DNA of 26,192 nucleotides from a virus (lineage: Duplodnaviria; Caudoviricetes). Shown here piece after piece: positions 788-23,941 of the stretch; within the stretch, counting starts at the first letter, position 1; the number at the start of each line of letters is the position of its first letter. The stretch is from IMG/VR virus record IMGVR_UViG_3300044476_000078, positions 1 to 26,192 of that record. One strand, 5' to 3'. Both the position numbers and the translations under genes were made by a program. The notes under the pieces are model-generated. The model was not told where the DNA came from. It saw nothing but the letters and a program-made list of their open reading frames with translations, and did no database searches.

Positions 788-1466
788 AACTTGTATCCCC
801 CGTTAAGCGAGTAACTCCGGGAAGCTGATAGGTTTGGCTTATTCTCTGGTGAAGCTGATTGAACTGTGATTTCTCCTGACCAATACGCTTCGCAACCTCA
901 GACTCATACCTCTGAAAAAAATAATCAGCCTTCTGGTACTGCTTCTTATATGCCAGTGCTTCAGCGGTAGCGCCAAGCTCAAGCATGTACTCAATATCTT
1001 TGATGACAGCTGTATCTGTATTCCCGGAAAGATCCGTGACCGATTTCTGGTAAGGTAACGCAATCGTCTTATTTGATGTCGGTTTAGGATCAAATTTTAT
1101 CTTCGAGCTCTCTCTTAAAATAACGTACCGACGAGGATTTCCGCCCTGAGGGAGAGATGCTCCTGAGTAACTGCTTCCTCTTAGCCTCCACCAGCCTCCC
1201 TCGTTATATCTCTGAAGAATTTCTCCGTCAGTTATATTCGCCACGAATACTTCTCGGTCAAAATCCGAAGGGAGATCGTACTCAGCGGCGGAACTCGTGA
1301 TTGGAATTGTATAGTTATCATCGATGAGAGCAGACCACACGCAGCGCCTTGCGATATCGCGATATTTATCGTTGATCCACACTCCAATTAGCGTAGCAAA
1401 CATCGTAGAGGTATCCTGAACGAAACTGCCGACGTTTGTTTTCATCTGTGAAAATGTCTTTGCCAT
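774..1466 (-). CDS. Head-tail adaptor / tail tubular protein A-like (T7 gp11 / P22 gp4 type)
   Basis: 230 aa. Contains WINDKYRDI, EYDLPSDF and FDPKP segments and a helical C-terminus, as in podovirus adaptor proteins; lies directly before the nozzle-like gene. SD AGGAG upstream. Confidence 0.7.
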   Translation of the reverse strand: MAKTFSQMKTNVGSFVQDTSTMFATLIGVWINDKYRDIARRCVWSALIDDNYTIPITSSAAEYDLPSDFDREVFVANITDGEILQRYNEGGWWRLRGSSYSGASLPQGGNPRRYVILRESSKIKFDPKPTSNKTIALPYQKSVTDLSGNTDTAVIKDIEYMLELGATAEALAYKKQYQKADYFFQRYESEVAKRIGQEKSQFNQLHQRISQTYQLPGVTRLTGDTSYDTV

Positions 1467-3151: not shown

Positions 3152-3295
3152 TTACTTCGTGCGTAACCCCTTAAACTTCGCTCCGTTGCTCTTGAGTTGC
3201 CATTGACTCTCAAATGCTCCAATATCGGTGATCCCCACACGAGGATTGCCGTCATAGTCTGTGGACACTTCGGGTAAATAGGTTCCGGCGTTGAT
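3152..3295 (-). repeat. Copy 1 of a 47-codon C-terminal module shared with 5283-5426
   Basis: 40 of 47 residues identical between the two beta-helix proteins by manual alignment. Confidence 0.9.
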
Positions 3296-4522
3296 GGCGG
3301 GGCTGGATTGTTGAAGGTGGAAATCTGCCGAGCCTGTGAATTTTGGATCAGCAAAGACAGCGTTAGTTAGATATCCCAATCCCGTCCATTCTGCTTTTGT
3401 GTGATTGACTACCCCAGCGTCGTAAGTCTGAAAGTTTGATGCAGTTGATAAATATAGATTATTTGACTCCGTAAATACGGTCGCTGGATTGTTCAGGAAG
3501 ACTTCTGACTGGCTTGCGGTCGCGGAAAAAATATTATTATTCGCCTCAACCATTTGCGCTGAATCAGCAGTAAAGCCAACTTTCAAATTATAAAGAGTTG
3601 ATCCGGTCGATGTGTTGTTATAAAATTTTTGGAGTATGCTCGCAGAAGAAGAATGCGAATTAAAATTCTGCCCCGCGTTGTTCGAGGCAATATTGTCATA
3701 AACTATATTTGATTCATTACCTCCGGCTGTGATGCCACTACCCTCGCCATTGACAACTAAGTTTCGGAAAATCCTTCCATTGGTCGTCGAGGTAAAGCTG
3801 TTTTGCATATCAATTCCACTACCGCCACTCCCTAACGTGCTGTAAATGTAATTATCATGTACGATTGGCCCATAACATCCATCATCAACCCCGATAGCGT
3901 CGAAGTTTCCAGTTCCACTTGTTCCATTATTTCCAAGAGTTAAATGTGCAATTTCAATACCTGGGGAATTAAAAGCCTGTAATCCGCCATGAACGCAATT
4001 TATATACGTCCCGCCGTAGATAATTCCATCAGTTGAAATGTATCTTAAACAAGTTGACCCTCCGCCAGCACCGTTAATGCTGACGTTAAATAGTCTAACC
4101 TTCGTTGTTGGCGTTAGGTCCGTACCATTGGAACCAACCGTCAAGACCCTTGAAGATGAATTGCTACTTAGTGAGATGTCTTTCAGGTCGATATATTTTC
4201 TTGTTGCAATCGGTGTTATGGGGGGATTGGAGTTAGAAATTGATCCTGCATCACCAGAACAACCGCCAGAAACGGTAAGTTGATTTATAAGCGTACCGTC
4301 TGCCCCTATGGTCAGGACTTCCGTTGTGTGCGCCCCACAGATATAGAGTGTGTCGTCCGCAGATATTGATGCCCAGTTGATATTGGTGAACCCATCCCAA
4401 GCGTTAGCGTAACTTGTACCATTTTCAGACCCATAACTACCGCCCGACGGACGAACGTACCATGTGGCTCCCATTAAAAACGGGATAGATAACAAAACAA
4501 TTAGTTTGATTGGATTTGCCAT
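3152..4522 (-). CDS. Right-handed parallel beta-helix protein with signal peptide and choice-of-anchor-Q-like C-terminus
   Basis: 456 aa. Signal-like MANPIKLIVLLSIPFLMGA then TWYVRP; Asn/Gly-rich PbH1-type repeats (IVHDNYIY, IFRNLVV, VYDNIAS, FYNNTS); DFHLQQSSPAINAG...DYDGNPR...DIGAFE. Confidence 0.8.
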   Translation of the reverse strand: MANPIKLIVLLSIPFLMGATWYVRPSGGSYGSENGTSYANAWDGFTNINWASISADDTLYICGAHTTEVLTIGADGTLINQLTVSGGCSGDAGSISNSNPPITPIATRKYIDLKDISLSSNSSSRVLTVGSNGTDLTPTTKVRLFNVSINGAGGGSTCLRYISTDGIIYGGTYINCVHGGLQAFNSPGIEIAHLTLGNNGTSGTGNFDAIGVDDGCYGPIVHDNYIYSTLGSGGSGIDMQNSFTSTTNGRIFRNLVVNGEGSGITAGGNESNIVYDNIASNNAGQNFNSHSSSASILQKFYNNTSTGSTLYNLKVGFTADSAQMVEANNNIFSATASQSEVFLNNPATVFTESNNLYLSTASNFQTYDAGVVNHTKAEWTGLGYLTNAVFADPKFTGSADFHLQQSSPAINAGTYLPEVSTDYDGNPRVGITDIGAFESQWQLKSNGAKFKGLRTK

Positions 4523-5286
4523 ACTGGACCATTCGTTAAGGTTCCGTTTACTCCGCCGATTGAGTCTGTAAGAACCGTTCCGCTTCCTTCGTTAAAATAA
4601 TAATCTGCGGTACATGGGATTGGTGACGCTTGGTTTTGTATAAATTGTCCGCCGTTGTATAGCGTAGTGACGTTAGCTTGAGTTAAGGCTGTTCCGGCGT
4701 AAATAGTTAATCTTCGGAATAAACCGTCCCACGTTCTAGTCGCACCGGAAAAGTTCCCGATTATAAAAGCTCTTGCTGGACTTGAATCATTGACTATCGC
4801 TCCCACGCCTGCTGTATCAGTAGCAAGAGCTTGAAGGGTTCCGTCGATGTAAATTTTACCCTTATTGTCGCCATCCTCATTAAACACGAAAACGCAATGA
4901 TGCCAAACGCCGTATGTAAAATTGGCATCGTTCATAATGGCTTGCATATCCGTGTCCATATCAAGAAAGAATTTCAGCTTGTTAGCGGTGTTGATAGTTG
5001 CCTGAAACATCGTTTTGTCAAAGATTCTCCCATTAACCGATCCAGCGCTTCGTGCCAGTACCCACGCCGCAACGGAGAATTTCGTTTGACCATAAACCTG
5101 ATTGGATGCGTTGTTGGCAATGGTTACATACCCACCGCTTGCCGCCGCCCCATCAAAACTCAGCGCATTAAACCCACTCCTCACCGTCATGTTCCGAAGT
5201 ACGCCAGAGCCAAAGACGTGCCTTGCCTCACTCGCATCAGAAGTCACCGCGATAAACAAAAATAGAATAGATAATAGGTATCTCAT
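4501..5286 (-). CDS. LamG / concanavalin A-like lectin-fold protein with signal peptide
   Basis: 261 aa. ALSFDG, FSVAAWV, WHHCVFVF, KIYIDG, FIIGN, WDGLFRRLTIY and YYFNEGSG...NGTLTNGPVW are Laminin_G_3-type motifs; N-terminal MRYLLSILFLFIAVTSDA. Confidence 0.85.
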   Translation of the reverse strand: MRYLLSILFLFIAVTSDASEARHVFGSGVLRNMTVRSGFNALSFDGAAASGGYVTIANNASNQVYGQTKFSVAAWVLARSAGSVNGRIFDKTMFQATINTANKLKFFLDMDTDMQAIMNDANFTYGVWHHCVFVFNEDGDNKGKIYIDGTLQALATDTAGVGAIVNDSSPARAFIIGNFSGATRTWDGLFRRLTIYAGTALTQANVTTLYNGGQFIQNQASPIPCTADYYFNEGSGTVLTDSIGGVNGTLTNGPVWQIQSN

Positions 5287-5426
5287 TTCGTGCGAAGTCC
5301 TTTCAGTTTGGCCCCGTTACTTTTGATCTGCCATTGAGATTCAAATGCGCCGATGTCCGTTATGCCAATACGAGGGTTGCCGTCGTAATCGTTCGTGACT
5401 TCCGGCAGATTGACGCCAGCGTTGAT
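5283..5426 (-). repeat. Copy 2 of the 47-codon C-terminal module
   Basis: INAGVNLPEVTNDYDGNPRIGITDIGAFESQWQIKSNGAKLKGLRTK versus INAGTYLPEVSTDYDGNPRVGITDIGAFESQWQLKSNGAKFKGLRTK. Confidence 0.9.
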
Positions 5427-7103
5427 AGTCGGTGATAATTGAGTCGGGCGGAGATTGTAAATTGCCTGGTCGGTAAATACTGGATCAGAAGTTATGGAAT
5501 GAGCGTCTTGCCCTAACGCCTGCCACCCCGCGAAAGTCTTTGTGGCTCCGAGGTAGGTTCCGAAGGTTGCGCCTACGGAATAATCGTTATAGTCGAAGGT
5601 CTGCTCAGGTGCATAAACCTGAAGCGCTTTTCCATTCGTTGTTTTTACGATATTGTTTTTCCAGACGTTTCCGGTATCGTTTGGACAATATGCGGAATTT
5701 CCAAGCCCTACAAATGCCGCATCAGCGTCAACATTTACCAAGATATTGTGATAAAATTTGTTATTCGTATTTCCGCAGTAGTTTTCTGATCCGGTATAAA
5801 TCCCAGATGCCGGAAAACCAATCAATTCATTGTTGAAAAGCGTATTTTGGTCACTATTGTTCGTTATTTTTATTCCAATACCCTGAAAGACTCTGCATTT
5901 CCTAGCATCATATTTGCTGTACCCGTTTGCACTTGCACAAGCTGGATATCCTGTGACATTGCTGCGATTGCTATAAACTGAATTATTGTTAGAAGTCCAG
6001 ACCTCAAGGAATTGGTTAGTGCAGTTGTTACCTGTGTTATGATGGAAGTACGAACGATCAACGCCAAAGTCAACTTCATAGCAAGAGCCGTTGCGTGTAT
6101 CGTGGACATAGTTCCCATACTCTTGCGCTCCGGTTATCGTATGTCCAATGTGTGTTCCTCCGCTCTCAGAATCATCGACGCCCGCATTCCCGCCGTCTAA
6201 AGAAAGACATGAAACGTCCGTCTGACCCTCTGTGCCGCTGTCGGTACAAGTGTTATTTCTTAATATAAAATTATCCCCACCCCCACGGAAGCAGTTTGAT
6301 CCACAGGTAGAAAAATCGTTGTCCTCAACGACGGAATTATCCGAAAGATAACCGCCGTAATATTCTCCCATTTCTAGGTTATACCCATTGTGTCCATAAA
6401 ACGAAAGACCATGTACCCACTTATAATCCCAATGGCTTGTTCCTCCCCATCCACCGATATCAATTCCTGTACTGATGGATGAATACTGCACCGTCTTACC
6501 ACTTGGGTCTGCAGAGTCTGATGTCCAGACATACAGCTTCTGTCCGGTCACATCATGCGTGTATGTCCCTGCCGTCATGTTTGCGGCGGTAGTGGCAATA
6601 TCGGTTTTCCAAACGATATACATCAGTCGTGAGCCGTCAACGGTAACGATCTTGCGCTGAGATGTGGATGTATTATCAGCAGAATAAATAGCTGTCGCTG
6701 CATATCTTGTCCATGGGCCAGCTTGCGTTGACATTCCGTTGATAATAGGTTTTGCAAGACCGCCGATGCCTCTGTCATACGACGATATTTCAGACAAGTC
6801 GCTTGCTGTTCCCGACCAATGGCTATTCATTGAGCAGTTAAGCGTTGTCCCGGCATAGATGTAAACATCAACGCCCAAGTCGGTATCACCAACGTAGCCC
6901 TTGATATTATTGACCGGAGTGCAGGATTTCCACGGCCCATTTGAGCCGGAAACGAAGCTCGGGGCCAGACCGTCCCAAGAGTCGTTACCGCCAACAGGAT
7001 CAACATATACTTTTGTTCCAGAGGATAGCGAGTGAGCATATCCGCAGGAAACAAAAATAATCATTACTGCAAGAAAGTATTTTAATTTGCGGCACATAGA
7101 CAC
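5283..7103 (-). CDS. Cys-rich right-handed parallel beta-helix protein with signal peptide and choice-of-anchor-Q-like C-terminus
   Basis: 606 aa (start 7103 or 7097). KLKYFLAVMIIFVSCGYAHS signal; VYVDPVGGNDSWDG...PWKS motif typical of beta-helix N-termini; same C-terminal module as 3152-4522. Confidence 0.8.
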   Translation of the reverse strand: MSMCRKLKYFLAVMIIFVSCGYAHSLSSGTKVYVDPVGGNDSWDGLAPSFVSGSNGPWKSCTPVNNIKGYVGDTDLGVDVYIYAGTTLNCSMNSHWSGTASDLSEISSYDRGIGGLAKPIINGMSTQAGPWTRYAATAIYSADNTSTSQRKIVTVDGSRLMYIVWKTDIATTAANMTAGTYTHDVTGQKLYVWTSDSADPSGKTVQYSSISTGIDIGGWGGTSHWDYKWVHGLSFYGHNGYNLEMGEYYGGYLSDNSVVEDNDFSTCGSNCFRGGGDNFILRNNTCTDSGTEGQTDVSCLSLDGGNAGVDDSESGGTHIGHTITGAQEYGNYVHDTRNGSCYEVDFGVDRSYFHHNTGNNCTNQFLEVWTSNNNSVYSNRSNVTGYPACASANGYSKYDARKCRVFQGIGIKITNNSDQNTLFNNELIGFPASGIYTGSENYCGNTNNKFYHNILVNVDADAAFVGLGNSAYCPNDTGNVWKNNIVKTTNGKALQVYAPEQTFDYNDYSVGATFGTYLGATKTFAGWQALGQDAHSITSDPVFTDQAIYNLRPTQLSPTINAGVNLPEVTNDYDGNPRIGITDIGAFESQWQIKSNGAKLKGLRTK

Positions 7104-8083
7104 TTATCAGCCGTAGCAGAATCACACTTTACCGCAACTTCACCGCTTGCCGTGTCCCATCCAAGCACACATCCTCTGACACACGTTGTTGTACACGCCG
7201 TATTAGCTGCACTTTTAATACCCCATCCCAATGTTGTCCCACCACCATAAAGTGAACCGTCAGCATAGATATTTCCGTCTGCCTCTATGTCAGTTCCGAC
7301 TAATAATCCATTCCCCGTCGAAGATGTTCGTGATGCCGTCGCAATCTGAAGTTTTGCATTAGAGGCATTTGTACCAATGGAAACATTTCCGAAATTATTG
7401 GTGGCTGGTGAAGCAAGCACAAGCGTTGTTCCGGCTCCATTGCTGTCAATAGTTAAGCGGTTAGAGCTATCCAGATAGATACTTCCCGTTCCAGCGGCTC
7501 CCGATGAATACAGTTTTATACCGCCCGAACTAGTAGTGCCATTAGAGCGAACGATAAGCGGGGCCGTTCCGTTAATTGGAGTACCGATTCCCACATTGTT
7601 GACGTACAGCATTCCATCAATCTGAGCGTTGTTCTTAACTAGAAAATCAATGTTTCCAGACCCACCTGTAACCGTCCCACCCCCCACATCCAACAGCGCA
7701 CTCGGCTGCTGTGTGCCAAGTCCGGTGTTGCCCGAGCCTTGAGCGTAGATTGCGCCGTCAACCCGTAGCTTCGTTGCGCCGGGAACTGTACCAGCAATGT
7801 AAATCGACTGGTCGGCAAAGTCGTTGCCGTCAATTTTCACCGTGACGCCCGGAGCGCTGTCGAACTCAATTTCTTCCTGACTTCCAGTTCCGATCGCATT
7901 ATCAAAATAGATATCACCGGATACGGTGAGATCGCCGTTAATGGTCTGAGCGCCGGAGAATGATGCTTTCAGAGGATTGGTTGTCGTTCCAACTTCAACC
8001 CCACTTCCATCCTGCAATACAACACGATCTGCGGCATAGGCAGCTGAGCAGAGCAGCATTAATATAACGAAAACTTTTCTCAT
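7082..8083 (-). CDS. Fibre-like protein with signal peptide, NVGIGT-type repeats and six-Cys tip
   Basis: Start revised to ATG 8083 (AAGGAG SD): MRKVFVILMLLCSAAYA|ADRV..., 333 aa; repeats GNTGLGT, NNVGIGT, GNVSIGT; C-terminal CTTTCVRGC...C...CLC. Confidence 0.75.
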   Translation of the reverse strand: MRKVFVILMLLCSAAYAADRVVLQDGSGVEVGTTTNPLKASFSGAQTINGDLTVSGDIYFDNAIGTGSQEEIEFDSAPGVTVKIDGNDFADQSIYIAGTVPGATKLRVDGAIYAQGSGNTGLGTQQPSALLDVGGGTVTGGSGNIDFLVKNNAQIDGMLYVNNVGIGTPINGTAPLIVRSNGTTSSGGIKLYSSGAAGTGSIYLDSSNRLTIDSNGAGTTLVLASPATNNFGNVSIGTNASNAKLQIATASRTSSTGNGLLVGTDIEADGNIYADGSLYGGGTTLGWGIKSAANTACTTTCVRGCVLGWDTASGEVAVKCDSATADKCLCAAN

Positions 8084-9770: not shown

Positions 9771-10568
9771 TTAGAAGTAGTTTTTCTGAGCCACTAAGTG
9801 GATATCGTACCAACTTGAGTATCTTGAGCTGAAGTTCCGACGACAAACGATAACTTTAAATCCTACCCTCTCGACCTCGCGCTTGAGAGCTTCCTCGGTC
9901 CACATGACGTAGTGCTCCTCAGTCTTGAAATGCGGAAACCCGGGAACGCCGGTCTTATGCATGAAGCTTATGTCAGGCGTGCCAATGTACAGAACGCCTG
10001 TCTCCGATAGAAGGTTGTACGCCTTTCGCAGCGCCGCCATCGGATCGTTGAAATGCTCGAACGAGTGATTCATCCATATCAAATCAAATTTTCGCTCGAA
10101 CTTGTCAGCGCCGGCAATAGCCTTGAGCTCATCGGTATTCGCCGGGATGTCAAAATCAAATGTCGTGAAATCTCCGCGATACAGGTTTCCTTTTCCTCCG
10201 GTGTCCTTGTTGACATCGATGCCCCATGTAATCCATCCACGATTCTCAAAGAACTTCATGTTGTGCGGAACGCAGTAACCGACATCGAGCATCTGCCGGC
10301 CGTAGGTAGCCTCCTCGATCACGTTCGCGTATGTGTGAGCGGCATGCGTAAGGCGCAGATCGGCTTCTTTCATGCCAGCATAATTCACGACATACTTCTC
10401 GTCGTAGTTACTGGCAACCGGGAGATTCTCCTGAAACATCACTCCGCACTGGCAGCGATACCACGTCGCTTCTTTCTTAATAAGCGATTCGTGGATCCGG
10501 TAAACATACGCCGTCGCGATTCCGCAAATTGGACAAGACTTCGGATACACCAAGCATTCTTCTGACAT
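9771..10568 (-). CDS. Class I SAM-dependent methyltransferase with N-terminal Zn-ribbon (Methyltransf_23-like), copy 2
   Basis: Start likely 10568 (TAATG overlap). CPIC...CQC; motif I LDVGYC; GIDVN; FDLIWMNHSFEHFNDP; GVLYIGTPD. Confidence 0.85.
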   Translation of the reverse strand: MSEECLVYPKSCPICGIATAYVYRIHESLIKKEATWYRCQCGVMFQENLPVASNYDEKYVVNYAGMKEADLRLTHAAHTYANVIEEATYGRQMLDVGYCVPHNMKFFENRGWITWGIDVNKDTGGKGNLYRGDFTTFDFDIPANTDELKAIAGADKFERKFDLIWMNHSFEHFNDPMAALRKAYNLLSETGVLYIGTPDISFMHKTGVPGFPHFKTEEHYVMWTEEALKREVERVGFKVIVCRRNFSSRYSSWYDIHLVAQKNYF

Positions 10569-11530
10569 TACGACTCCTTGACCTTGCAAATTTGTTTGTA
10601 CAGTCTTTCAGGTGAGATCCCTTGAGCCATGCACCACGCAGCTCTCGTCACAACGTCGACGGGACACTGCACATCGTGGTCATAGATCAGGTGAAAGCAA
10701 GGAGCGCAAGCACAGTCGGCTTCAAGTGAAAAATCGTTCAGAAAATATTTGGTGATGTTCTCTTTATTGGTATGTCCCAAGAGGCCGATTTTAGGCGTAC
10801 TGAAACACCCAGAGGCATGGAGGACACCAGTATCAGGACTCACCACCAGATCGACGAGGTTCGTTAGAACCATCGAAATCCTCATAGATACTTCCCCAGA
10901 CAGGTTCGTGATCCTCTCGTCCATGACTGTCTCGAGCAGTTGAGACTTCAAATCTCCAACTGTAATAATATGTGCGTCTTCGTAATCCTTTAAGATCTGT
11001 CCGATAACATACTCTGTCCATGGGTACACCTTGTTCTTTCCAGAGCCGGAAAGCGCCCAGAGGATATTATATTTTCCCGGCTTAATGTACTTCTTGGCCT
11101 CGGCTTCTTCCTCCGGTGTATAATGGAACTCCGGGCGCTTAACACATCCAGAAAGCTTTGCCCATTCCTCCGTTACATCGTAGTAGTTGCGATTGCACCG
11201 AGCAAAACGCTCAGGCTTAGGATAAATATATTCGGGATTGATCGGATGAAGCGCAACGTTGCATTCAATCGACTCGCTAAAATTAATAACTCTCTCGGCG
11301 TTGACTTCAGCGATGATCTTTTCCCAGTGCTTTGGAAGATCGTCAATCGGAACGCTGTCATCATGCATGATCCACTCGTCGATGTTTGGATTATGCTCGA
11401 GCGCCTCCCTGCCGCGCTTGTTGGTGTTGAGGACAACGTGGTATCCCTCTTCCTTAAGCTTCTTTAAGGCTGGCGTTATGTTGAGCATGTCGCCATAAGC
11501 CCCGTACCTGATGATTAAACACTTACGCAT
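10568..11530 (-). CDS. Glycosyltransferase family 9 (ADP-heptose heptosyltransferase-like), copy 2
   Basis: IIRYGAYGD, LEHNPNID, VVSPDTGVLHAS, CAPC...CP...CM..ISPERL: WaaF/RfaF-type GT9 motifs. Confidence 0.9.
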   Translation of the reverse strand: MRKCLIIRYGAYGDMLNITPALKKLKEEGYHVVLNTNKRGREALEHNPNIDEWIMHDDSVPIDDLPKHWEKIIAEVNAERVINFSESIECNVALHPINPEYIYPKPERFARCNRNYYDVTEEWAKLSGCVKRPEFHYTPEEEAEAKKYIKPGKYNILWALSGSGKNKVYPWTEYVIGQILKDYEDAHIITVGDLKSQLLETVMDERITNLSGEVSMRISMVLTNLVDLVVSPDTGVLHASGCFSTPKIGLLGHTNKENITKYFLNDFSLEADCACAPCFHLIYDHDVQCPVDVVTRAAWCMAQGISPERLYKQICKVKES

Positions 11531-12335
11531 TTGTCACCTTCTGAAAAAGTAAATGGTAGTCTCCCCAACATGTGAACTTCGGCGTATCGTTGCGCTTGCT
11601 AAACACGCATTTATAACCGAGCTCTTCGAGTGCCTCGATGAAGCTCTCCATGTCCCATAGAATGTGATGCTCGCGTAAGTGCCAATGGACCCAAGTATGC
11701 GGTCTGGTCCAATCAATGAACCAAGGATCCGGCATGGCCACAAAAAGTAATCCAGAATCGTTAAGTGCGGCCTTGAGATTCTTGGCCACCTTAAGCGGAT
11801 CCTTGAAGTGCTCAAAAATATGTGAAGCAAAAATCACGTCGAAAGTATCAGTCATTGCCCGTCCGTAATCTCCGTTTAAACCGGATTCGACGTCCCAGAT
11901 CATGATCTCATGCTTATCAGATTTCGCATTTGGGTTGATATCAATCCCCGTCGTCTTCCATCCCATCTCCTTGGCTTCGTCAAGAAGAGCGGTGTTGATC
12001 GCTCCAATCTCTGCAAAGCTTTCGATGGCCTTATGCTCGATCATGAGTGGGAAGTATTCGCTGTATCGACGGATCGCTTCGGTAGATTCTTTGGTCTGAT
12101 ACTTATCGTGATAGCCCTCATCGTACACGCGACTATCCATGTTCGACCAGTCAGTGAAGAATATATTCCTACAGTTGCAGAACGAATATCCACGATCCAG
12201 AACAGGAAGAAACATTCTTTCCTTCTCAGGATTCCTGACTATTCCCTGAATGAAGATCGGATGCTCTGTTCCGCACAGAGGACAGATCTGCGCCATCTTC
12301 TTCGGATACTTAAGGAGGTCAACCCCACACTGCAT
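11523..12335 (-). CDS. Class I SAM-dependent methyltransferase with N-terminal Zn-ribbon, copy 1
   Basis: CPLC...FCNC; AEIGA; GIDIN; FDVIFASHIFEHFKDP; GLLFVAMPD; paralogous to 9771-10568. Confidence 0.85.
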   Translation of the reverse strand: MQCGVDLLKYPKKMAQICPLCGTEHPIFIQGIVRNPEKERMFLPVLDRGYSFCNCRNIFFTDWSNMDSRVYDEGYHDKYQTKESTEAIRRYSEYFPLMIEHKAIESFAEIGAINTALLDEAKEMGWKTTGIDINPNAKSDKHEIMIWDVESGLNGDYGRAMTDTFDVIFASHIFEHFKDPLKVAKNLKAALNDSGLLFVAMPDPWFIDWTRPHTWVHWHLREHHILWDMESFIEALEELGYKCVFSKRNDTPKFTCWGDYHLLFQKVTNA

Positions 12336-13302
12336 ACGCTTTTCTCACCTGTTCAATAACTGTGTCGACATCGAACCAAACGCAAAGCGGATACCCATCT
12401 TTACGGGGACATCCGATAAATTTGTATTGTGCCTTCGTGCAAGGAGAGCACCGTGCCGGGCTCTGCAAGCTAAAATCATTTTTACATCCGTTAGGATGAT
12501 TGATGAGAGATGCCGCTGTCATCATTTGCACCGTCGGAGTTTCCCACATGTTCGCAGCAACTCCGAATCCGCTCTCCATCGATACGACAACACGCGCATA
12601 CTTAGCCATCAGAACAACCTGTCTGAATGGCATGATCTTCTTCAAAAATTTTATCCTGTCGCTTTCAGGAATATTCAGATTGTCCGAGTTTCTGTCTCCG
12701 GTAAGTAGCAGCTCGGAGTCTGGGAACTCGACGAGCAATCTTGCGATAAGCTCAGGAGCAAACGCCATACGCTTGTTGAGCGTGGTCCCGTTTAAATTCA
12801 CGATTATCGGATTCTTCCGACGAGACATATACTCACGAGCAATGCGTTCTTCCTCGTCGGTGTAATAAACTTCTCCTCGATACTGTCCGACCAGCTCAGG
12901 ATACCCGGCAACGATTGTGCTCTGATCGTAGTAATTCGTCTCGGCGTATTTCTGGCGATTCCTCGGATGCATGTAGTACACATTCGACGTCTCGCTTGCG
13001 ATCAGAGCTCCCTCAAGAGATTCGTACAGGTTCACGAACTTGTCGTATCCCTGACTGATGATCTCCCAATGCTTGTTAAGCATGAAAGGATCTTTGTAGA
13101 GCTCTATGTAATTGGTGGGCTCAAAGTAGAACAGGTTGTCGATGTGCGGATTATAAGAGAGAAGCTGTGATCCCTTGTAATTCGTTTCCACGTCGACGAT
13201 ATCGTATCCCTGATCCTTTAAAAGATGAGGGAGATGACTCATATGAATTATGTCACCGTAAGCGCCATACCGACTTATCAATGCCTTCTTCATCGGAGCC
13301 AT
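12319..13302 (-). CDS. Glycosyltransferase family 9 (heptosyltransferase-like), copy 1
   Basis: ISRYGAYGD, LSYNPHID, VVSMESGFGVAA, CSPC...CP...C; paralogous to 10568-11530 (shared SLEG/SIEC, NYYD and NDFSL segments). Confidence 0.9.
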   Translation of the reverse strand: MAPMKKALISRYGAYGDIIHMSHLPHLLKDQGYDIVDVETNYKGSQLLSYNPHIDNLFYFEPTNYIELYKDPFMLNKHWEIISQGYDKFVNLYESLEGALIASETSNVYYMHPRNRQKYAETNYYDQSTIVAGYPELVGQYRGEVYYTDEEERIAREYMSRRKNPIIVNLNGTTLNKRMAFAPELIARLLVEFPDSELLLTGDRNSDNLNIPESDRIKFLKKIMPFRQVVLMAKYARVVVSMESGFGVAANMWETPTVQMMTAASLINHPNGCKNDFSLQSPARCSPCTKAQYKFIGCPRKDGYPLCVWFDVDTVIEQVRKAYAVWG

Positions 13303-20904: not shown

Positions 20905-21175
20905 GGTGAACGGAAGAACGCAAAAAATAGCATTTTCCCTACTCTTTATTTTCCCTATATCTAACATATAATATATATATCATCTCTTAAATTTTAAAAA
21001 GTATCGTTCACTACGTTCATGTTTCTATAACCATATGTTGCATAACAACTTACAACGAACAGAATTTTTTAAACTCGTTCAAATTGCGTTCATTCAAATC
21101 ACTTTTTTGTTTTGAGTGAACGGAGTGTACGAAACGATTTTAGCCATATTCCGTTCATATTTACGATCCGTTCAA
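20905..21175. other. Putative replication origin (AT-rich core plus iterons)
   Basis: Non-coding gap downstream of the SF3 helicase; CGTTCA at 21005, 21014, 21076, 21087, 21152, 21169 and inverted TGAACG at 20907, 21117; TA-rich tract at about 20955-21000. Confidence 0.7.
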
Positions 21176-22470
21176 TCCTGAAAGTCGAACTGTTGTTCGG
21201 TCATTCTGCGGTTACCTTTAATGTTCACGTAGTACCAGCAGCGGTCACGTGTATCTGAAACTGGAGCCTGTCCATCCTCGACCTTGTTACGAAACTCCAT
21301 TAAAAACCGATTATTGAATTTCCGGTAGGATGGGGCGCGGTGTCCGTTATGCTCAGCCCAGCGTTTGAAGGCATCGTACAGGTCACGCTTGACCGTGTAG
21401 ACACGATCCTTGGTGAACTCAAGGGTATCCTCAGCGAACGCTATGATCGGGTTGTTATCGGCCTTCAGCTCATGAATTGCGGCATTCATGAAGGCATTAG
21501 TCGAGAAGCCTGACTGTTTGACGCGATTGTATCCTTCCATGCACCAGCGGAATATGCCGGCCAGCTCGTTTTCGAGTTTATGCTTAAGATCCACGTCCTT
21601 GGAGTCCTCATCGAATTCCACGTTGAATGGGACCAAGATCATGCGCCGATAGAAGGCGTTGGAGGCGTCATCGATGATCGGAAACTCGTTCAAGCAGTAG
21701 ATCAGCTTACAGGTGACAGCATGCGTTACGGCCGGAAGGTATTTCTCATTGAACAGAACCGGTTCGCCAGAGACGATCTTGCGAAATGATTCCTCGAACT
21801 TCTCAGCGTTACGGGGAAGGTCAGAATCGATGTTAATGTATTTTCCTATGATATTACAACGTATGACAGGATTGGATAGGCCTTCGAGAGATACCGCGCT
21901 GATGTTTTGTCGGCCGAAGACTTTAGCCAGAGTTTCTGAGAAAACTGACTTACCGTTCGATCCTCGTCCTATAAGGAAGAGAGCGCGTTCCAAGTGGCAT
22001 GACTTCATCAGGCAATACCCAGCGAATTCCTGAAGCAGCGACTGCTTAGTTTCGTCGCCTTCCGTTACGTCGGATAGAAACTTGCGCCAGATTGGAGCCT
22101 CGGCATCTGAAGTGTATTCATAAGGCAGCTGGATCGTTGAGAAGCAGTCTGGCGAGTGTGGCATGACGTTTCCTGAGTCGACAGCAACCAGACAGTTTTT
22201 AAAGCAGAAAAACCCGTCTGGGTTTAGCTCGTCCTCGTCGTGAGCCGCAAGGATCTCGATGTTACGTATGACCTGATCACGTTTGGATGGCGTCATCTTC
22301 TTGCCGTCGGGCTCGTCCATGACCATGAAGTGCATGCCGGCATCGCAGCGCGGTGACTTGATCGTCTGGTAGTATCCATCCCGGTAGATGAATATTCTGC
22401 CCATCGCCTGTACCGACAGGAGCGTGTGCTTGAGACGAATAGCGTGGGCTAATTGCAGTGATTTATCCAC
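21172..22470 (-). CDS. D5 / P4-family primase-associated SF3 helicase
   Basis: D5_N-like FCFKNC..HSPD..STIQLPYEY, LLQEFAGY, Walker A GRGSNGKS, motif C YCLNEFP, FYRRMILVPF, C-terminal winged-helix-like region. Confidence 0.92.
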   Translation of the reverse strand: MDKSLQLAHAIRLKHTLLSVQAMGRIFIYRDGYYQTIKSPRCDAGMHFMVMDEPDGKKMTPSKRDQVIRNIEILAAHDEDELNPDGFFCFKNCLVAVDSGNVMPHSPDCFSTIQLPYEYTSDAEAPIWRKFLSDVTEGDETKQSLLQEFAGYCLMKSCHLERALFLIGRGSNGKSVFSETLAKVFGRQNISAVSLEGLSNPVIRCNIIGKYINIDSDLPRNAEKFEESFRKIVSGEPVLFNEKYLPAVTHAVTCKLIYCLNEFPIIDDASNAFYRRMILVPFNVEFDEDSKDVDLKHKLENELAGIFRWCMEGYNRVKQSGFSTNAFMNAAIHELKADNNPIIAFAEDTLEFTKDRVYTVKRDLYDAFKRWAEHNGHRAPSYRKFNNRFLMEFRNKVEDGQAPVSDTRDRCWYYVNIKGNRRMTEQQFDFQD

Positions 22471-22612
22471 GGCGCACCACCTTCGAGATTGGGCGGTATT
22501 CGGTATAGACGCCGTGGATCTTTGAGCACAGATGACACCGCTTGTTTCGATTGGCGCATGCTACTCCGATGCATGCGTTGATACTGTAGTTTCCCCTTGA
22601 TTTGTAACTCAC
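22463..22612 (-). CDS. 49-aa four-Cys small protein
   Basis: GTGA overlap with the upstream stop, GGAGG SD; C-x4-C-x6-C-x2-C. Confidence 0.55.
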   Translation of the reverse strand: MSYKSRGNYSINACIGVACANRNKRCHLCSKIHGVYTEYRPISKVVRRG

Positions 22613-23235
22613 GATAGCGCCTCCACTGCTGTCCTGAAATCGACGTTTCTGGTTTTCATATAGAACTGGATAGAGTCTCCAGATTCGTGACAGGAGAAGC
22701 AATGGTACCGATTCGTTTTCTTGTAGATCGTAAACGACGGAGTTCGCTCAGCGTGGAATGGGCAGCATGCGACGATGGTCGTGGCCGTGTGCTTGGTCCG
22801 GCCGGCCGCAACGTCCGCCAGAAGATCCTCCAATGGCACGGATTTGGCTTTCTCTATATTAAGCGCCTTTTGAACCGGTGCTGGTTTTGCAGGTTGATCA
22901 GAAGATTTGCGCTTCCGCTTGGGGATCAGAGATAGATACTGATCCAGTGCGCGAAGCTCTTCCGTGGCCGGATCCAGTTTTTTCCATGTCTGAATACAGA
23001 CCACAAGGATCCGCTTGGTGTCGTTGTCATGTTCCTTCGATGTGTAGACATCCCCAATTGCCTCATCGTATCGTACCAGCCTAGATAAAAGTTCCCTGCG
23101 CCGCCTTAGAGCCAAGGATCGTTCATCCGGGAACGCTTCAGCCAGCTGAAACGGCGTCAGCGGACTGAAATGATCCGAATACTTGTCTGTGAACTGATCG
23201 GAATAAATCTCTGATTCGAATTGATTTTTGATCAC
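22609..23235 (-). CDS. Protein with C-terminal CHC2 (DnaG-type) zinc finger
   Basis: CPFHAERTPSF...YHCFSCHESGDSIQF...FRTAVEAL. Likely start GTG 23235 (SD GGGGAGGG); a second in-frame start with its own SD lies at ATG 23364. Confidence 0.88.
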   Translation of the reverse strand: MIKNQFESEIYSDQFTDKYSDHFSPLTPFQLAEAFPDERSLALRRRRELLSRLVRYDEAIGDVYTSKEHDNDTKRILVVCIQTWKKLDPATEELRALDQYLSLIPKRKRKSSDQPAKPAPVQKALNIEKAKSVPLEDLLADVAAGRTKHTATTIVACCPFHAERTPSFTIYKKTNRYHCFSCHESGDSIQFYMKTRNVDFRTAVEALS

Positions 23236-23254
23236 CCTGATACCCTCCCCTGAC

Positions 23255-23323
23255 GTTCCTGCGTTCCCGGGTAGTAGGGAGCTACCCGGGAACAAACCCT
23301 TGGGAGAAAAGGGTCGCAGGAAC
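23255..23323 (-). ncRNA. Three-way-junction structured RNA with two CUCCC loops
   Basis: Closing stem 23255-23262/23316-23323 (8 bp); perfect 12-bp hairpin 23263-23274/23282-23293 with minus-strand loop CUCCCUA; 6-bp hairpin 23296-23301/23309-23314 with loop UUCUCCC. Confidence 0.65.
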
Positions 23324-23362
23324 AAAAAAAGCACACGTCCGGCCGTTTGGCCAAACATGTGC
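23324..23362 (-). terminator. Intrinsic terminator/attenuator upstream of the replication genes
   Basis: Minus strand GCACAUGUUUGGCC-AAAC-GGCCGGACGUGUGC-UUUUUUU: 14-bp stem whose three non-Watson-Crick pairs are G-U only on the minus strand, then 7 U. Confidence 0.8.
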
Positions 23363-23363
23363 A

Positions 23364-23387
23364 TTAAATAATTAACCTCCCCACCAT
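23364..23387 (-). CDS. Putative 7-aa leader peptide MVGRLII
   Basis: GGGAGG (23403-23398) 10 nt before ATG; stop TAA overlaps ATG 23364 (TAATG), which is in frame with the CHC2 gene. Confidence 0.45.
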   Translation of the reverse strand: MVGRLII

Positions 23388-23417
23388 GGTACGTCCGCCT
23401 CCCAACGGATAAAGCAC

Positions 23418-23446
23418 ACCTTATAGAGTATGGTGGAAAAAGTCAA
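23418..23446 (-). promoter_or_regulatory. Leftward sigma70-like promoter
   Basis: TTGACT (23446-23441), 17-nt spacer, TAAGGT (23423-23418); overlapping TATAAG also present. Confidence 0.6.
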
Positions 23447-23565
23447 CTAAAAAGTAGAAATCTGCCGGACCATATTTCGATCCATGAACGTACATTTCGT
23501 GGAATTAATTAGAAATTATTTTTGAAAAAAGATTTTCTCCGACGACAAATCATTTTAATCAGCAC

Positions 23566-23593
23566 TTGACATACGTACGTACAGTGGTATCAT
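23566..23593 (+). promoter_or_regulatory. Rightward early sigma70-like promoter
   Basis: TTGACA (23566-23571), 16-nt spacer, TATCAT (23588-23593) with TG extended -10; AT-rich upstream region; palindrome TACGTACGTA in the spacer. Confidence 0.75.
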
Positions 23594-23599
23594 TAGAGC

Positions 23600-23809
23600 G
23601 TGGTTAGAGAGAAAGATCTTTGAGAGGGATGAGCCGAGGAAGCAGGGATCGCAAGCGAGCTTCCAAAACCTGAAGGAAGACCGGAACACAGCCCGGCAGG
23701 TCGAGAGAGGTGATGAGATTCCCGGTGGTAACCGGGAATTTAAACCCCGGATCGAGCGATTACGATGATCGCGGTCCACGGTTCAAAGGCCGATAACTGG
23801 GAGGTTACT
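23600..23809 (+). ncRNA. Long structured 5' leader of the early operon
   Basis: About 210 nt without a credible ORF; consecutive stems at 23638-23664, 23668-23701, 23717-23740, 23749-23777, 23779-23792. Confidence 0.5.
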
Positions 23810-23941
23810 ATGGTGAAGGTTGAATACTCAGGGAAGTACAACCAGTGGTTCGAGAAGATTTTTTATAACATTGAAGCAGCGCAAGATTTCATGTACCGGC
23901 AGATCAGCAAGGGCTGGGATGCTGAAATGATAATGATTTAA
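23810..23941 (+). CDS. 43-aa early protein (not in the ORF track)
   Basis: GGGAGG SD; MVKVEYSGKYNQWFEKIFYNIEAAQDFMYRQISKGWDAEMIMI. Confidence 0.7.
   Translation: MVKVEYSGKYNQWFEKIFYNIEAAQDFMYRQISKGWDAEMIMI

Follow-up and report, generated by a model that had tools for sequence, protein, structure and literature searches.

Organisation of the replication-operon leader

The window, by which we mean the whole 26,192-nt stretch of DNA that was analysed, is a 26.2-kb tailed-phage fragment with a completeness estimate of 59%. On its minus strand, a leader is followed in order by a CHC2 zinc-finger gene, a D5/P4-type primase-helicase gene, and the terminase, portal and capsid genes, and a divergent operon of small, mostly uncharacterised genes runs from a strong promoter at 23566. 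The leader element occurs without any difference in one sediment-metagenome DNA run, which may be the window's source. For the D5 protein, nothing above 31% identity was found among 62 GTDB loci, and none of the best 15 matches listed from annotated phages exceeded ~30%; a blastn search of annotated phages with the leader returned one chance piece only. In the structural region (minus strand), two long proteins encoded at 3152-7103 and 9771-13302 have near-identical C-terminal tails, and four genes appear by eye to resemble those for glycosyltransferases and methyltransferases.

An earlier sequence-only reading of this DNA had listed the parts of the leader, and each of them was located on the minus strand as described, using the sequence, the ORF list and a terminator check. 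The features considered here are as follows.

21172..22470, minus: D5/P4-type primase-helicase gene (D5_N, DUF5906, Pox_D5; PHROG primase), in the same predicted operon as CHC2
22609..23235, minus: CHC2 zinc-finger primase-part gene, GTG start, 208 aa (PF01807, E 1.7e-21)
23243..23250, minus: SD3, GGGGAGGG, of the CHC2 gene (sequence)
23255..23323, minus: predicted three-way-junction antisense RNA, 69 nt (fold; no Rfam match)
23323-23316/23262-23255, minus: stem P1 of the junction (fold)
23308-23302, minus: loop of junction stem P2, UUCUCCC, termed loop 1 (fold)
23281-23275, minus: loop of junction stem P3, CUCCCUA, termed loop 2 (fold)
23324..23362, minus: predicted intrinsic terminator, 14-bp stem (23362-23331) and U7 (23330-23324) (terminator prediction)
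23364..23387, minus: leader ORF, MVGRLII and stop codon (sequence)
23377..23386, minus: target 2, UGGUGGGGAG, codons 1-4 with SD2 included, complement of loop 2 (sequence, pairing energy)
23394..23409, minus: target 1, a small hairpin displaying SD1 (UUGGGAGG), complement of loop 1 (nascent-leader fold; 8-bp match)
23405-23398, minus: SD1, TTGGGAGG (sequence)
23418..23446, minus: predicted sigma70-type promoter, TTGACT (23446-23441), 17 nt, TAAGGT (weak -10) (sequence)
23566..23593, plus: divergent early-operon promoter, TTGACA-16-TATCAT, with three overlapping GTACGT boxes in its spacer (sequence)
23793..23812, plus: possible second loop 1 target, a hairpin loop displaying the TGGGAG SD that precedes the first sizeable divergent ORF (ATG 23810) (fold; weak)

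The minus-strand leader promoter was not among the calls of a consensus promoter scan. Its -10 box lies 30 nt from the start codon, a spacing equal to that of relatives with better promoters (31 nt in L042, 30 nt in L182 and 29 nt in L379), which supports the weak promoter of the window. The UGGGAG loop of target 1 is also present in L042. The stop codon of the leader ORF begins 4 nt before the terminator stem, and the last A of this TAA is shared with an ATG at 23364 that is in frame with the CHC2 gene (251-aa ORF). Homologues of CHC2 in L105 and L104 align only from residues 56 and 62 of the 251-aa frame, supporting the GTG start at 23235; a CHC2 protein with an N-terminal extension from ATG 23364 was considered and received no support from these homologues.

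Folding indicated that the terminator forms by default. Its 5′ arm is paired at a probability of 1.00 in the nascent RNA of the window (0.70-1.00 across the terminators examined), and no antiterminator helix competing with it was found in nascent-leader folds. When the first 12 nt of the 5′ arm were blocked, the predicted stability of the window terminator fell from -25.1 to -3.1 kcal/mol, and the same block abolished all four predicted terminators of the leaders compared below. We also observed that GTGTGCTTT occurs both at 23414-23422, beside the -10 box, and at 23328-23336, in the 3′ arm of the terminator; judging from the sequence, this repeat could form an antiterminator only if transcription started upstream of the predicted start.

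The earlier reading had also described the switch as free of protein, with no repressor gene between the divergent promoters. Consistent with the latter statement, no ORF of at least 50 aa lies wholly inside this interval of a contig estimated to be 59% complete, and the window ORFs that were scanned showed no repressor domain. Relatives encode proteins with weak RHH or HTH matches, none of which were seen in the window ORFs scanned. Five of the 11 GTACGT boxes in the window cluster within 194 bp (23389-23582): three overlap in the plus-strand promoter spacer, one lies at 23488, and one is placed between SD1 and the leader ATG. Such clustered boxes may, from their sequence and placement, be protein operators. 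As the contig is partial and these boxes cluster in the control region, the switch is at most a candidate for control by RNA only. The leader of the divergent operon (23595-23812, plus strand; 215 nt) has a strong predicted fold and two possible short ORFs, and it includes a hairpin at 23709-23748 whose stem resembles junction P3.

The junction RNA and its recurrence in other phages

The window junction (23323-23255) has a predicted folding energy of -41.9 kcal/mol (z -8.1), and none of 200 shuffles was as stable. As claimed from the sequence, loop 1 matches SD1 over 8 bp with one G-U pair (UCUCCCAA/UUGGGAGG), and loop 2 matches the leader over 10 bp with two G-U pairs (23386-23377). Among 3000 leader shuffles, 402 reached the loop 1 score, 83 the loop 2 score, and 5 both. 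Since C-rich loops match any SD, the loop pairings were compared with 25 SD-like sites preceding window ORFs. Loop 2 bound its target at -16.9 kcal/mol, against -11.3 at best among these 25 sites. Loop 1 bound SD1 at -13.4, and several other window SD sites bound it at -11 to -12.3, indicating that loop 1 is weakly specific; 4 of 7478 genome 20-mers, self-matches included, bound its seed equally well. The possible second target at 23793..23812 bound loop 1 at -11.2, no better than at least five other GGGAG sites. In cis, SD3 can in addition form 10 bp (3 G-U) with the loop and 5′ strand of P2, and the alternative fold that sequesters SD3 is predicted at -42.8 kcal/mol, 2.9 above the minimum of -45.7. 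No match between a downstream SD and the junction was seen in L042, L182 or L379; the TAATG restart and the SD3 pairing are specific to the window.

Searches with the D5 protein yielded five distinct phages with at least 41% identity and upstream DNA. Two of these, L042 (55%) and L182 (56%), recovered solely by D5 protein homology, carry the full layout immediately before the D5 gene: a TTGACA promoter, a hairpin, an ATGG-loop-CCAT element, and a terminator whose U tract is followed without a gap by a three-way junction. L379 was recovered by a pattern scan in which loop 1 was required and both loop 2 and the SD were left out of the pattern; its layout precedes a RecT gene in a record without a D5 match. 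The window and these three phages share a promoter, targets, a leader ORF running to an intrinsic terminator, and a junction directly after the U tract. In L105 (43%), in which the CHC2 gene comes first as in the window, a promoter is followed by a 10-codon ORF that ends 11 nt before a terminator, and by a closed structure of 54 nt whose predicted pairing with the beginning of the ORF (-22.1 kcal/mol, 11 contiguous pairs) was reached in 21 of 3000 shuffles. A fused and weaker version of the element is present in the L101 group (41%). In L101 at 1700-1850, and identically in L102, a Prim-Pol/D5 operon is preceded by a leader ORF that reads through one large U-tailed structure, two segments of which are complementary to the leader; L103 and L183 were further, near-identical matches. 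The leader is absent from L104 (45%), the remaining one of the five close D5 relatives. Only 3 of 40 capsid-related records had a D5 gene, and the leader preceded D5 in none of the three, suggesting that the element follows the replication module.

When 3.15 Mb of fetched DNA, with redundant loci counted in, was scanned for the layout alone, 4498 terminator-like sites were found, 582 of them with a promoter; 81 had a closed downstream fold, and eight distinct sites reached a loop-leader score of at least 8. Four of the eight folded at -0.45 kcal/mol/nt or better: the window, L042, L182 and L105. The pattern scan without loop 2 or SD, run on 23 of the 64 IMG/VR parts, returned 119 matches, of which 3 were real (L042, L182 and the new L379), and in the final, complete pattern scan 2 of 23 matches were real and neither was new. 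Other pattern scans gave 1 real match out of 11 and, in another case, 3 matches comprising 2 already-known contigs and 1 chance match. The window was the sole match in a two-CUCC-loop scan of 90 sequences. Among CHC2-domain relatives (41 loci), the zinc finger alone matched, and the CHC2 N-terminal part as query found only itself.

Several structures were observed beside these leaders. A tRNA-like element lies ~8-10 nt past the junction and before the D5 gene in L182 (3913-3981) and L042 (~4028-4090). Relaxed ARAGORN called the L182 copy as a 69-nt tRNA-Pyl(cta), a setting that also makes junk calls in the window; the element is not present in the window and had no Rfam match. It might supply an RNase P site freeing the 3′ end of the junction RNA. 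Recoding of TAG in the relatives with this element was also considered, and no supporting sign was found. L379 has a second strong hairpin structure (-35.4 kcal/mol) at 1170-1265 (minus strand), between the junction and the RecT SD, and in the divergent-operon leader of L042 (1330-1500, minus strand) an in-frame start lies inside long nested stems, which run to a point just short of the SD. In a Magnetococcales MAG (L266, ~7666-7830, plus strand), ~2.7 kb downstream of a distant D5 gene, there is a promoter with a terminator and a three-way junction, a loop of which matches the leader over 8 bp; this structure may be another such element.

Comparison of the four full examples separates what is constant from what varies. 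The geometry is constant: the start codon follows the -10 box by 29-31 nt and precedes the terminator by 25-33 nt, and the leader ORF crosses the terminator in L042, L182 and L379, so that it reaches or crosses it in 4/4 with the window included. The junctions (69 nt in the window, 56-61 nt in the relatives) have stems that are unrelated in sequence, and neither leaders nor junctions could be aligned by MAFFT. Four full examples with unalignable junctions give no basis for a column-wise covariation count, and L379 is at most a putative homologue. Junction z scores were -8.1 in the window, -7.1 in L182, -3.4 in L379 and -1.9 in L042 (11 of 200 shuffles as stable). Loop 1 reads CUCC(C/U)A in 4/4, a constraint imposed by the search pattern for L379, and pairs with the leader SD in 3/4, over 13 bp in L379. 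The exception is L182, whose loop 1 (CUCCUA) has no SD or target in the leader (4 bp; 1187 of 9870 20-mers bind equally); there, a second in-frame AUG is present, and its SD overlaps target 2.

Loop 2 and its target differ from phage to phage and stay complementary in 4/4 (window, L042, L182 and L379), the target always lying inside the first 20 nt of the leader ORF. The loop 2/target pairs are CUCCCUA/UGGGGAG in the window and CUGUGAC/GUCACAG, CCUUCU/AGAAGG and CCGUUC/GAACGG in the relatives. Genome 20-mers binding the loop 2 seed equally well, self-matches included, numbered 4/7478, 81/6014, 24/9870 and 278/17944, with a 20-nt target window that was picked after inspecting the data. Among five leaders compared, each loop 2 seed bound its own most strongly, and two seeds bound the G-rich leader of the window nearly as well (-14.5 versus -14.7; -11.0 versus -11.2). 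That loop 2 and its target change together in 4/4 argues for an address loop reading codons 1-5 and against the anti-SD loop that had been proposed, a general role which the loops CUGUGAC, CCUUCU and CCGUUC contradict; the window's loop 2 resembles CUCCC because its leader ORF happens to contain an SD. The element is real and recurrent, and from these sequences the loop 2 pairing is very probably functional.

Proposed mechanism and alternative explanations

Conservation of the layout in three other phages with different matching letters makes an RNA feedback switch likely. In the full mechanism that we propose, and that we consider somewhat probable as a model, the leader of the replication operon would act as an RNA negative-feedback gate. 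We infer transcription from the predicted promoter, termination, and ribosome-dependent read-through, the last requiring coupling or a pause. Ribosomes translating the short leader ORF would keep the terminator from forming, and read-through would yield the three-armed junction RNA, which some nuclease would release from the read-through transcript. Acting in trans, this RNA would place loop 1 on the leader SD and loop 2 on the first codons and so block the ribosome; termination would then be restored, giving negative feedback or immunity. Since loop 2 varies, the control would be specific to each phage, as in P1/P7 heteroimmunity. This proposal keeps much of the sequence-only reading, namely the junction fold, the loop matches and the analogy with P4 CI and P1 C4, and departs from it in the role of loop 2 as an anti-SD loop.

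Several observations point in this direction. As the terminators form by default, have no antiterminator helix, and collapse when the 5′ arm is blocked, a ribosome is the simplest opener, and the sites matched by the junction RNA are the sites that a ribosome needs. Because the junction RNA is encoded past the terminator, it can act on that terminator only in other transcripts, that is, in trans. The ~88-nt terminated leader carries both targets and would therefore titrate the junction RNA, giving a threshold. Counting against the mechanism, the ribosome must by our estimate arrive at the hairpin within only ~35-45 nt of transcription, and transcription-translation coupling is not universal among bacteria. 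No processing signal is conserved among the four phages. As to the biological role, lysogenic immunity is unsupported by the three partial D5 relatives, in which neither a tyrosine integrase nor a resolvase was found; an integrase is present in the record of L379 and in 1 of 5 near-complete capsid relatives, so the role may be immunity, copy control or lytic timing.

The same pairings would also serve in the reverse direction, with the terminated leader binding the junction in the read-through mRNA in trans and activating downstream translation, for example by freeing SD3. The targets are displayed in hairpin loops, the SD3-sequestering fold of the window lies close to the minimum, and according to PMC4825925 the IsrK RNA of Gifsy-1 is a terminated leader activating its own long mRNA in trans. 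Against this direction, which we regard as unlikely, the junction pairs with no downstream SD in the three relatives, the IsrK model has no match at the locus, and neither the constant location of the paired sites at the leader ORF start nor the extension of this ORF to the terminator would be explained. Action in cis only, in which the junction folds back on its own leader (a translation stop, ribosome clearing or polarity) or forms a pseudoknot on SD3, would require no processing step, and it would draw on pairing partners within ~110 nt of one transcript and on the 10-bp SD3-P2 pairing of the window. Such pairing, however, forms only past the terminator, whose conservation it leaves unexplained; the SD3 pairing exists in 1/4, and no Rfam family matched, int-alpA included, so we consider exclusive cis action improbable.

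A wider reach, with the CUCC(C/U)A loop silencing many phage ribosome-binding sites, including that of the first divergent early gene, and the leader pairing serving as autoregulation, appears quite improbable to us. It would account for the TGGGAG hairpin loop at the first sizeable divergent ORF of the window, and for L182 (loop CUCCUA), whose leader lacks target 1 and whose first divergent gene has TAGGAGG in a hairpin loop; yet L042 combines the loop CUCCCA with TAGGAG at that gene, TAGGAG is an ordinary SD, and the window site binds no better than other GGGAG sites. It is very improbable that the pairings have no function and that the leader is simply a terminator with a stabilising or processing structure, its matches arising by chance or as remnants of local inverted duplication. 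The modest single-loop shuffle values and the readiness of C-rich loops to match any SD would fit such an origin, but in each of the four phages a different loop 2 sequence matches the leader of that phage at one common position, and the geometry is fixed although the stems are unrelated.

Beyond the feedback gate itself, we tentatively suggest, at somewhat lower confidence, that these leaders may form an RNA class with no sequence relationship to C4/CI. It would be a portable module of 150-200 nt whose three-armed RNA, with a fixed anti-SD loop and a freely reprogrammable address loop, shuts off a leader ORF on which the ribosome keeps an intrinsic terminator open, providing protein-free, phage-specific feedback or immunity on CHC2/D5 and RecT operons with the leader as a sponge. 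If this module reading is true, uncultured environmental phages would have replication/recombination feedback or superinfection immunity, the leader sponge setting the threshold. The four natural, mostly orthogonal loop/target address pairs make both mechanism and specificity testable with simple reporters.

Comparison with known leader RNAs

Attenuators of the pyrBI type and the rep control of IncI/IncB plasmids use a translated leader ORF placed to govern a downstream gene. The leaders described here likewise have a leader ORF, translated in our model, positioned to control a downstream replication gene, whereas the signal would be a same-strand RNA from past the terminator and no metabolite or counter-transcript. 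In IncI/IncB plasmids, the counter-transcribed antisense RNA has its own promoter, and there is an activating pseudoknot. The only promoter-like site of this kind on the plus strand lies at 23045 (9/12, with 2.8 expected by chance); the SDs and the U tract favour the minus strand.

Scans with all Rfam families, one of the checks proposed for the locus, gave no match (E<=5 for the window; E<=10 for 23150-23600), and nothing came near a gathering score in the window and relatives. The C4 model (RF01695), run singly without a positive control, matched none of five records (window, L182, L042, L379 and L184) at E<=10. IsrK/seqA (RF01394) had no match at the leader and a 9-bit match elsewhere in the window. 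The c4-2 and int-alpA motifs (Weinberg 2017) gave no match in the all-family scans. By analogy, the element appears to work like P4 CI/seqA and P1 C4/a1b1, yet it is not a member of Rfam C4 or IsrK. No published description of this layout in phages of this kind was found in a search of mainly open-access literature.

The analogy with P4 CI and P1 C4 drawn in the first reading holds, in that a leader-encoded RNA pairs with upstream sites of its own transcript. According to PMC4825925, P4 CI RNA is a processing product of the replication-operon leader, and its pairing with seqA and seqC leads to premature termination; seqA and CI are given as structural homologues of IsrK and C4 in PMC3632133. 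As PMC4825925 and PMC3632133 describe for P4, the RNA here lies within the leader of a replication operon and pairs with an upstream site of its own transcript. A D5/P4-type primase-helicase is encoded downstream, and the outcome described for P4 is premature termination. The differences are that neither the C4 (CI-like) nor the IsrK (seqA-like) model matches here, that a seqC-like downstream target exists here in the window only, that the targets form the start region of a leader ORF running onto an intrinsic terminator, and that the element resides in tailed phages with their own capsid genes.

C4 of P1/P7 (RF01695) has three stems and ~77 nt and is processed by RNase P at GGW (PMC5320573, PMC12197685); one loop occludes the RBS and one sets specificity (PMC5320573). 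The window junction agrees with these accounts in its three stems and similar size (69 versus ~77 nt), and in having two seeds, one over the RBS and one variable for specificity. Both seeds are complementary to upstream sites in 3/4, with loop 2 only in L182. The a1b1 targets are drawn as two hairpins in PMC2864571, and the upstream targets in tandem hairpin loops resemble c4-a1b1 as presented there (Weinberg 2010, PMC2864571). Here, however, P1 is short, each of the two hairpin loops is a seed, the targets are separated from the RNA by an intrinsic terminator, and the operons encode primase or RecT rather than an antirepressor. The junctions start with GUU, GCC, GUC and GCU, matching neither the 5′ GGW of PMC5320573 nor the C4 consensus of PMC2864571. 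A second downstream RBS target, like a2b2 or seqC, is represented by the SD3 pairing in the window, and none was seen in 3/3 relatives.

The IsrK/orf45/STnc1160 locus of Gifsy-1, as described in PMC4825925, likewise has a promoter, a terminated leader RNA, and read-through into an ORF with a complementary processed RNA. In that account the short RNA activates translation, and no sequence or model match to it was found here. PMC4825925 also states that co-expression of the C4-like RNA left IsrK toxicity unrelieved and that the short upstream RNA is the active partner, a precedent that counts against the feedback mechanism proposed here.

RNA-based phage immunity is known mainly from P1/P7, P4 and their proteobacterial relatives, in which the step from pairing to termination is indirect. 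In the four leaders, the link would be compact and plainly physical: an ORF that reaches an intrinsic terminator begins at the paired sites. If the proposal is true, they would provide a small programmable RNA feedback part, and the design known from P1/P7 and P4 would have arisen again outside the C4 family.
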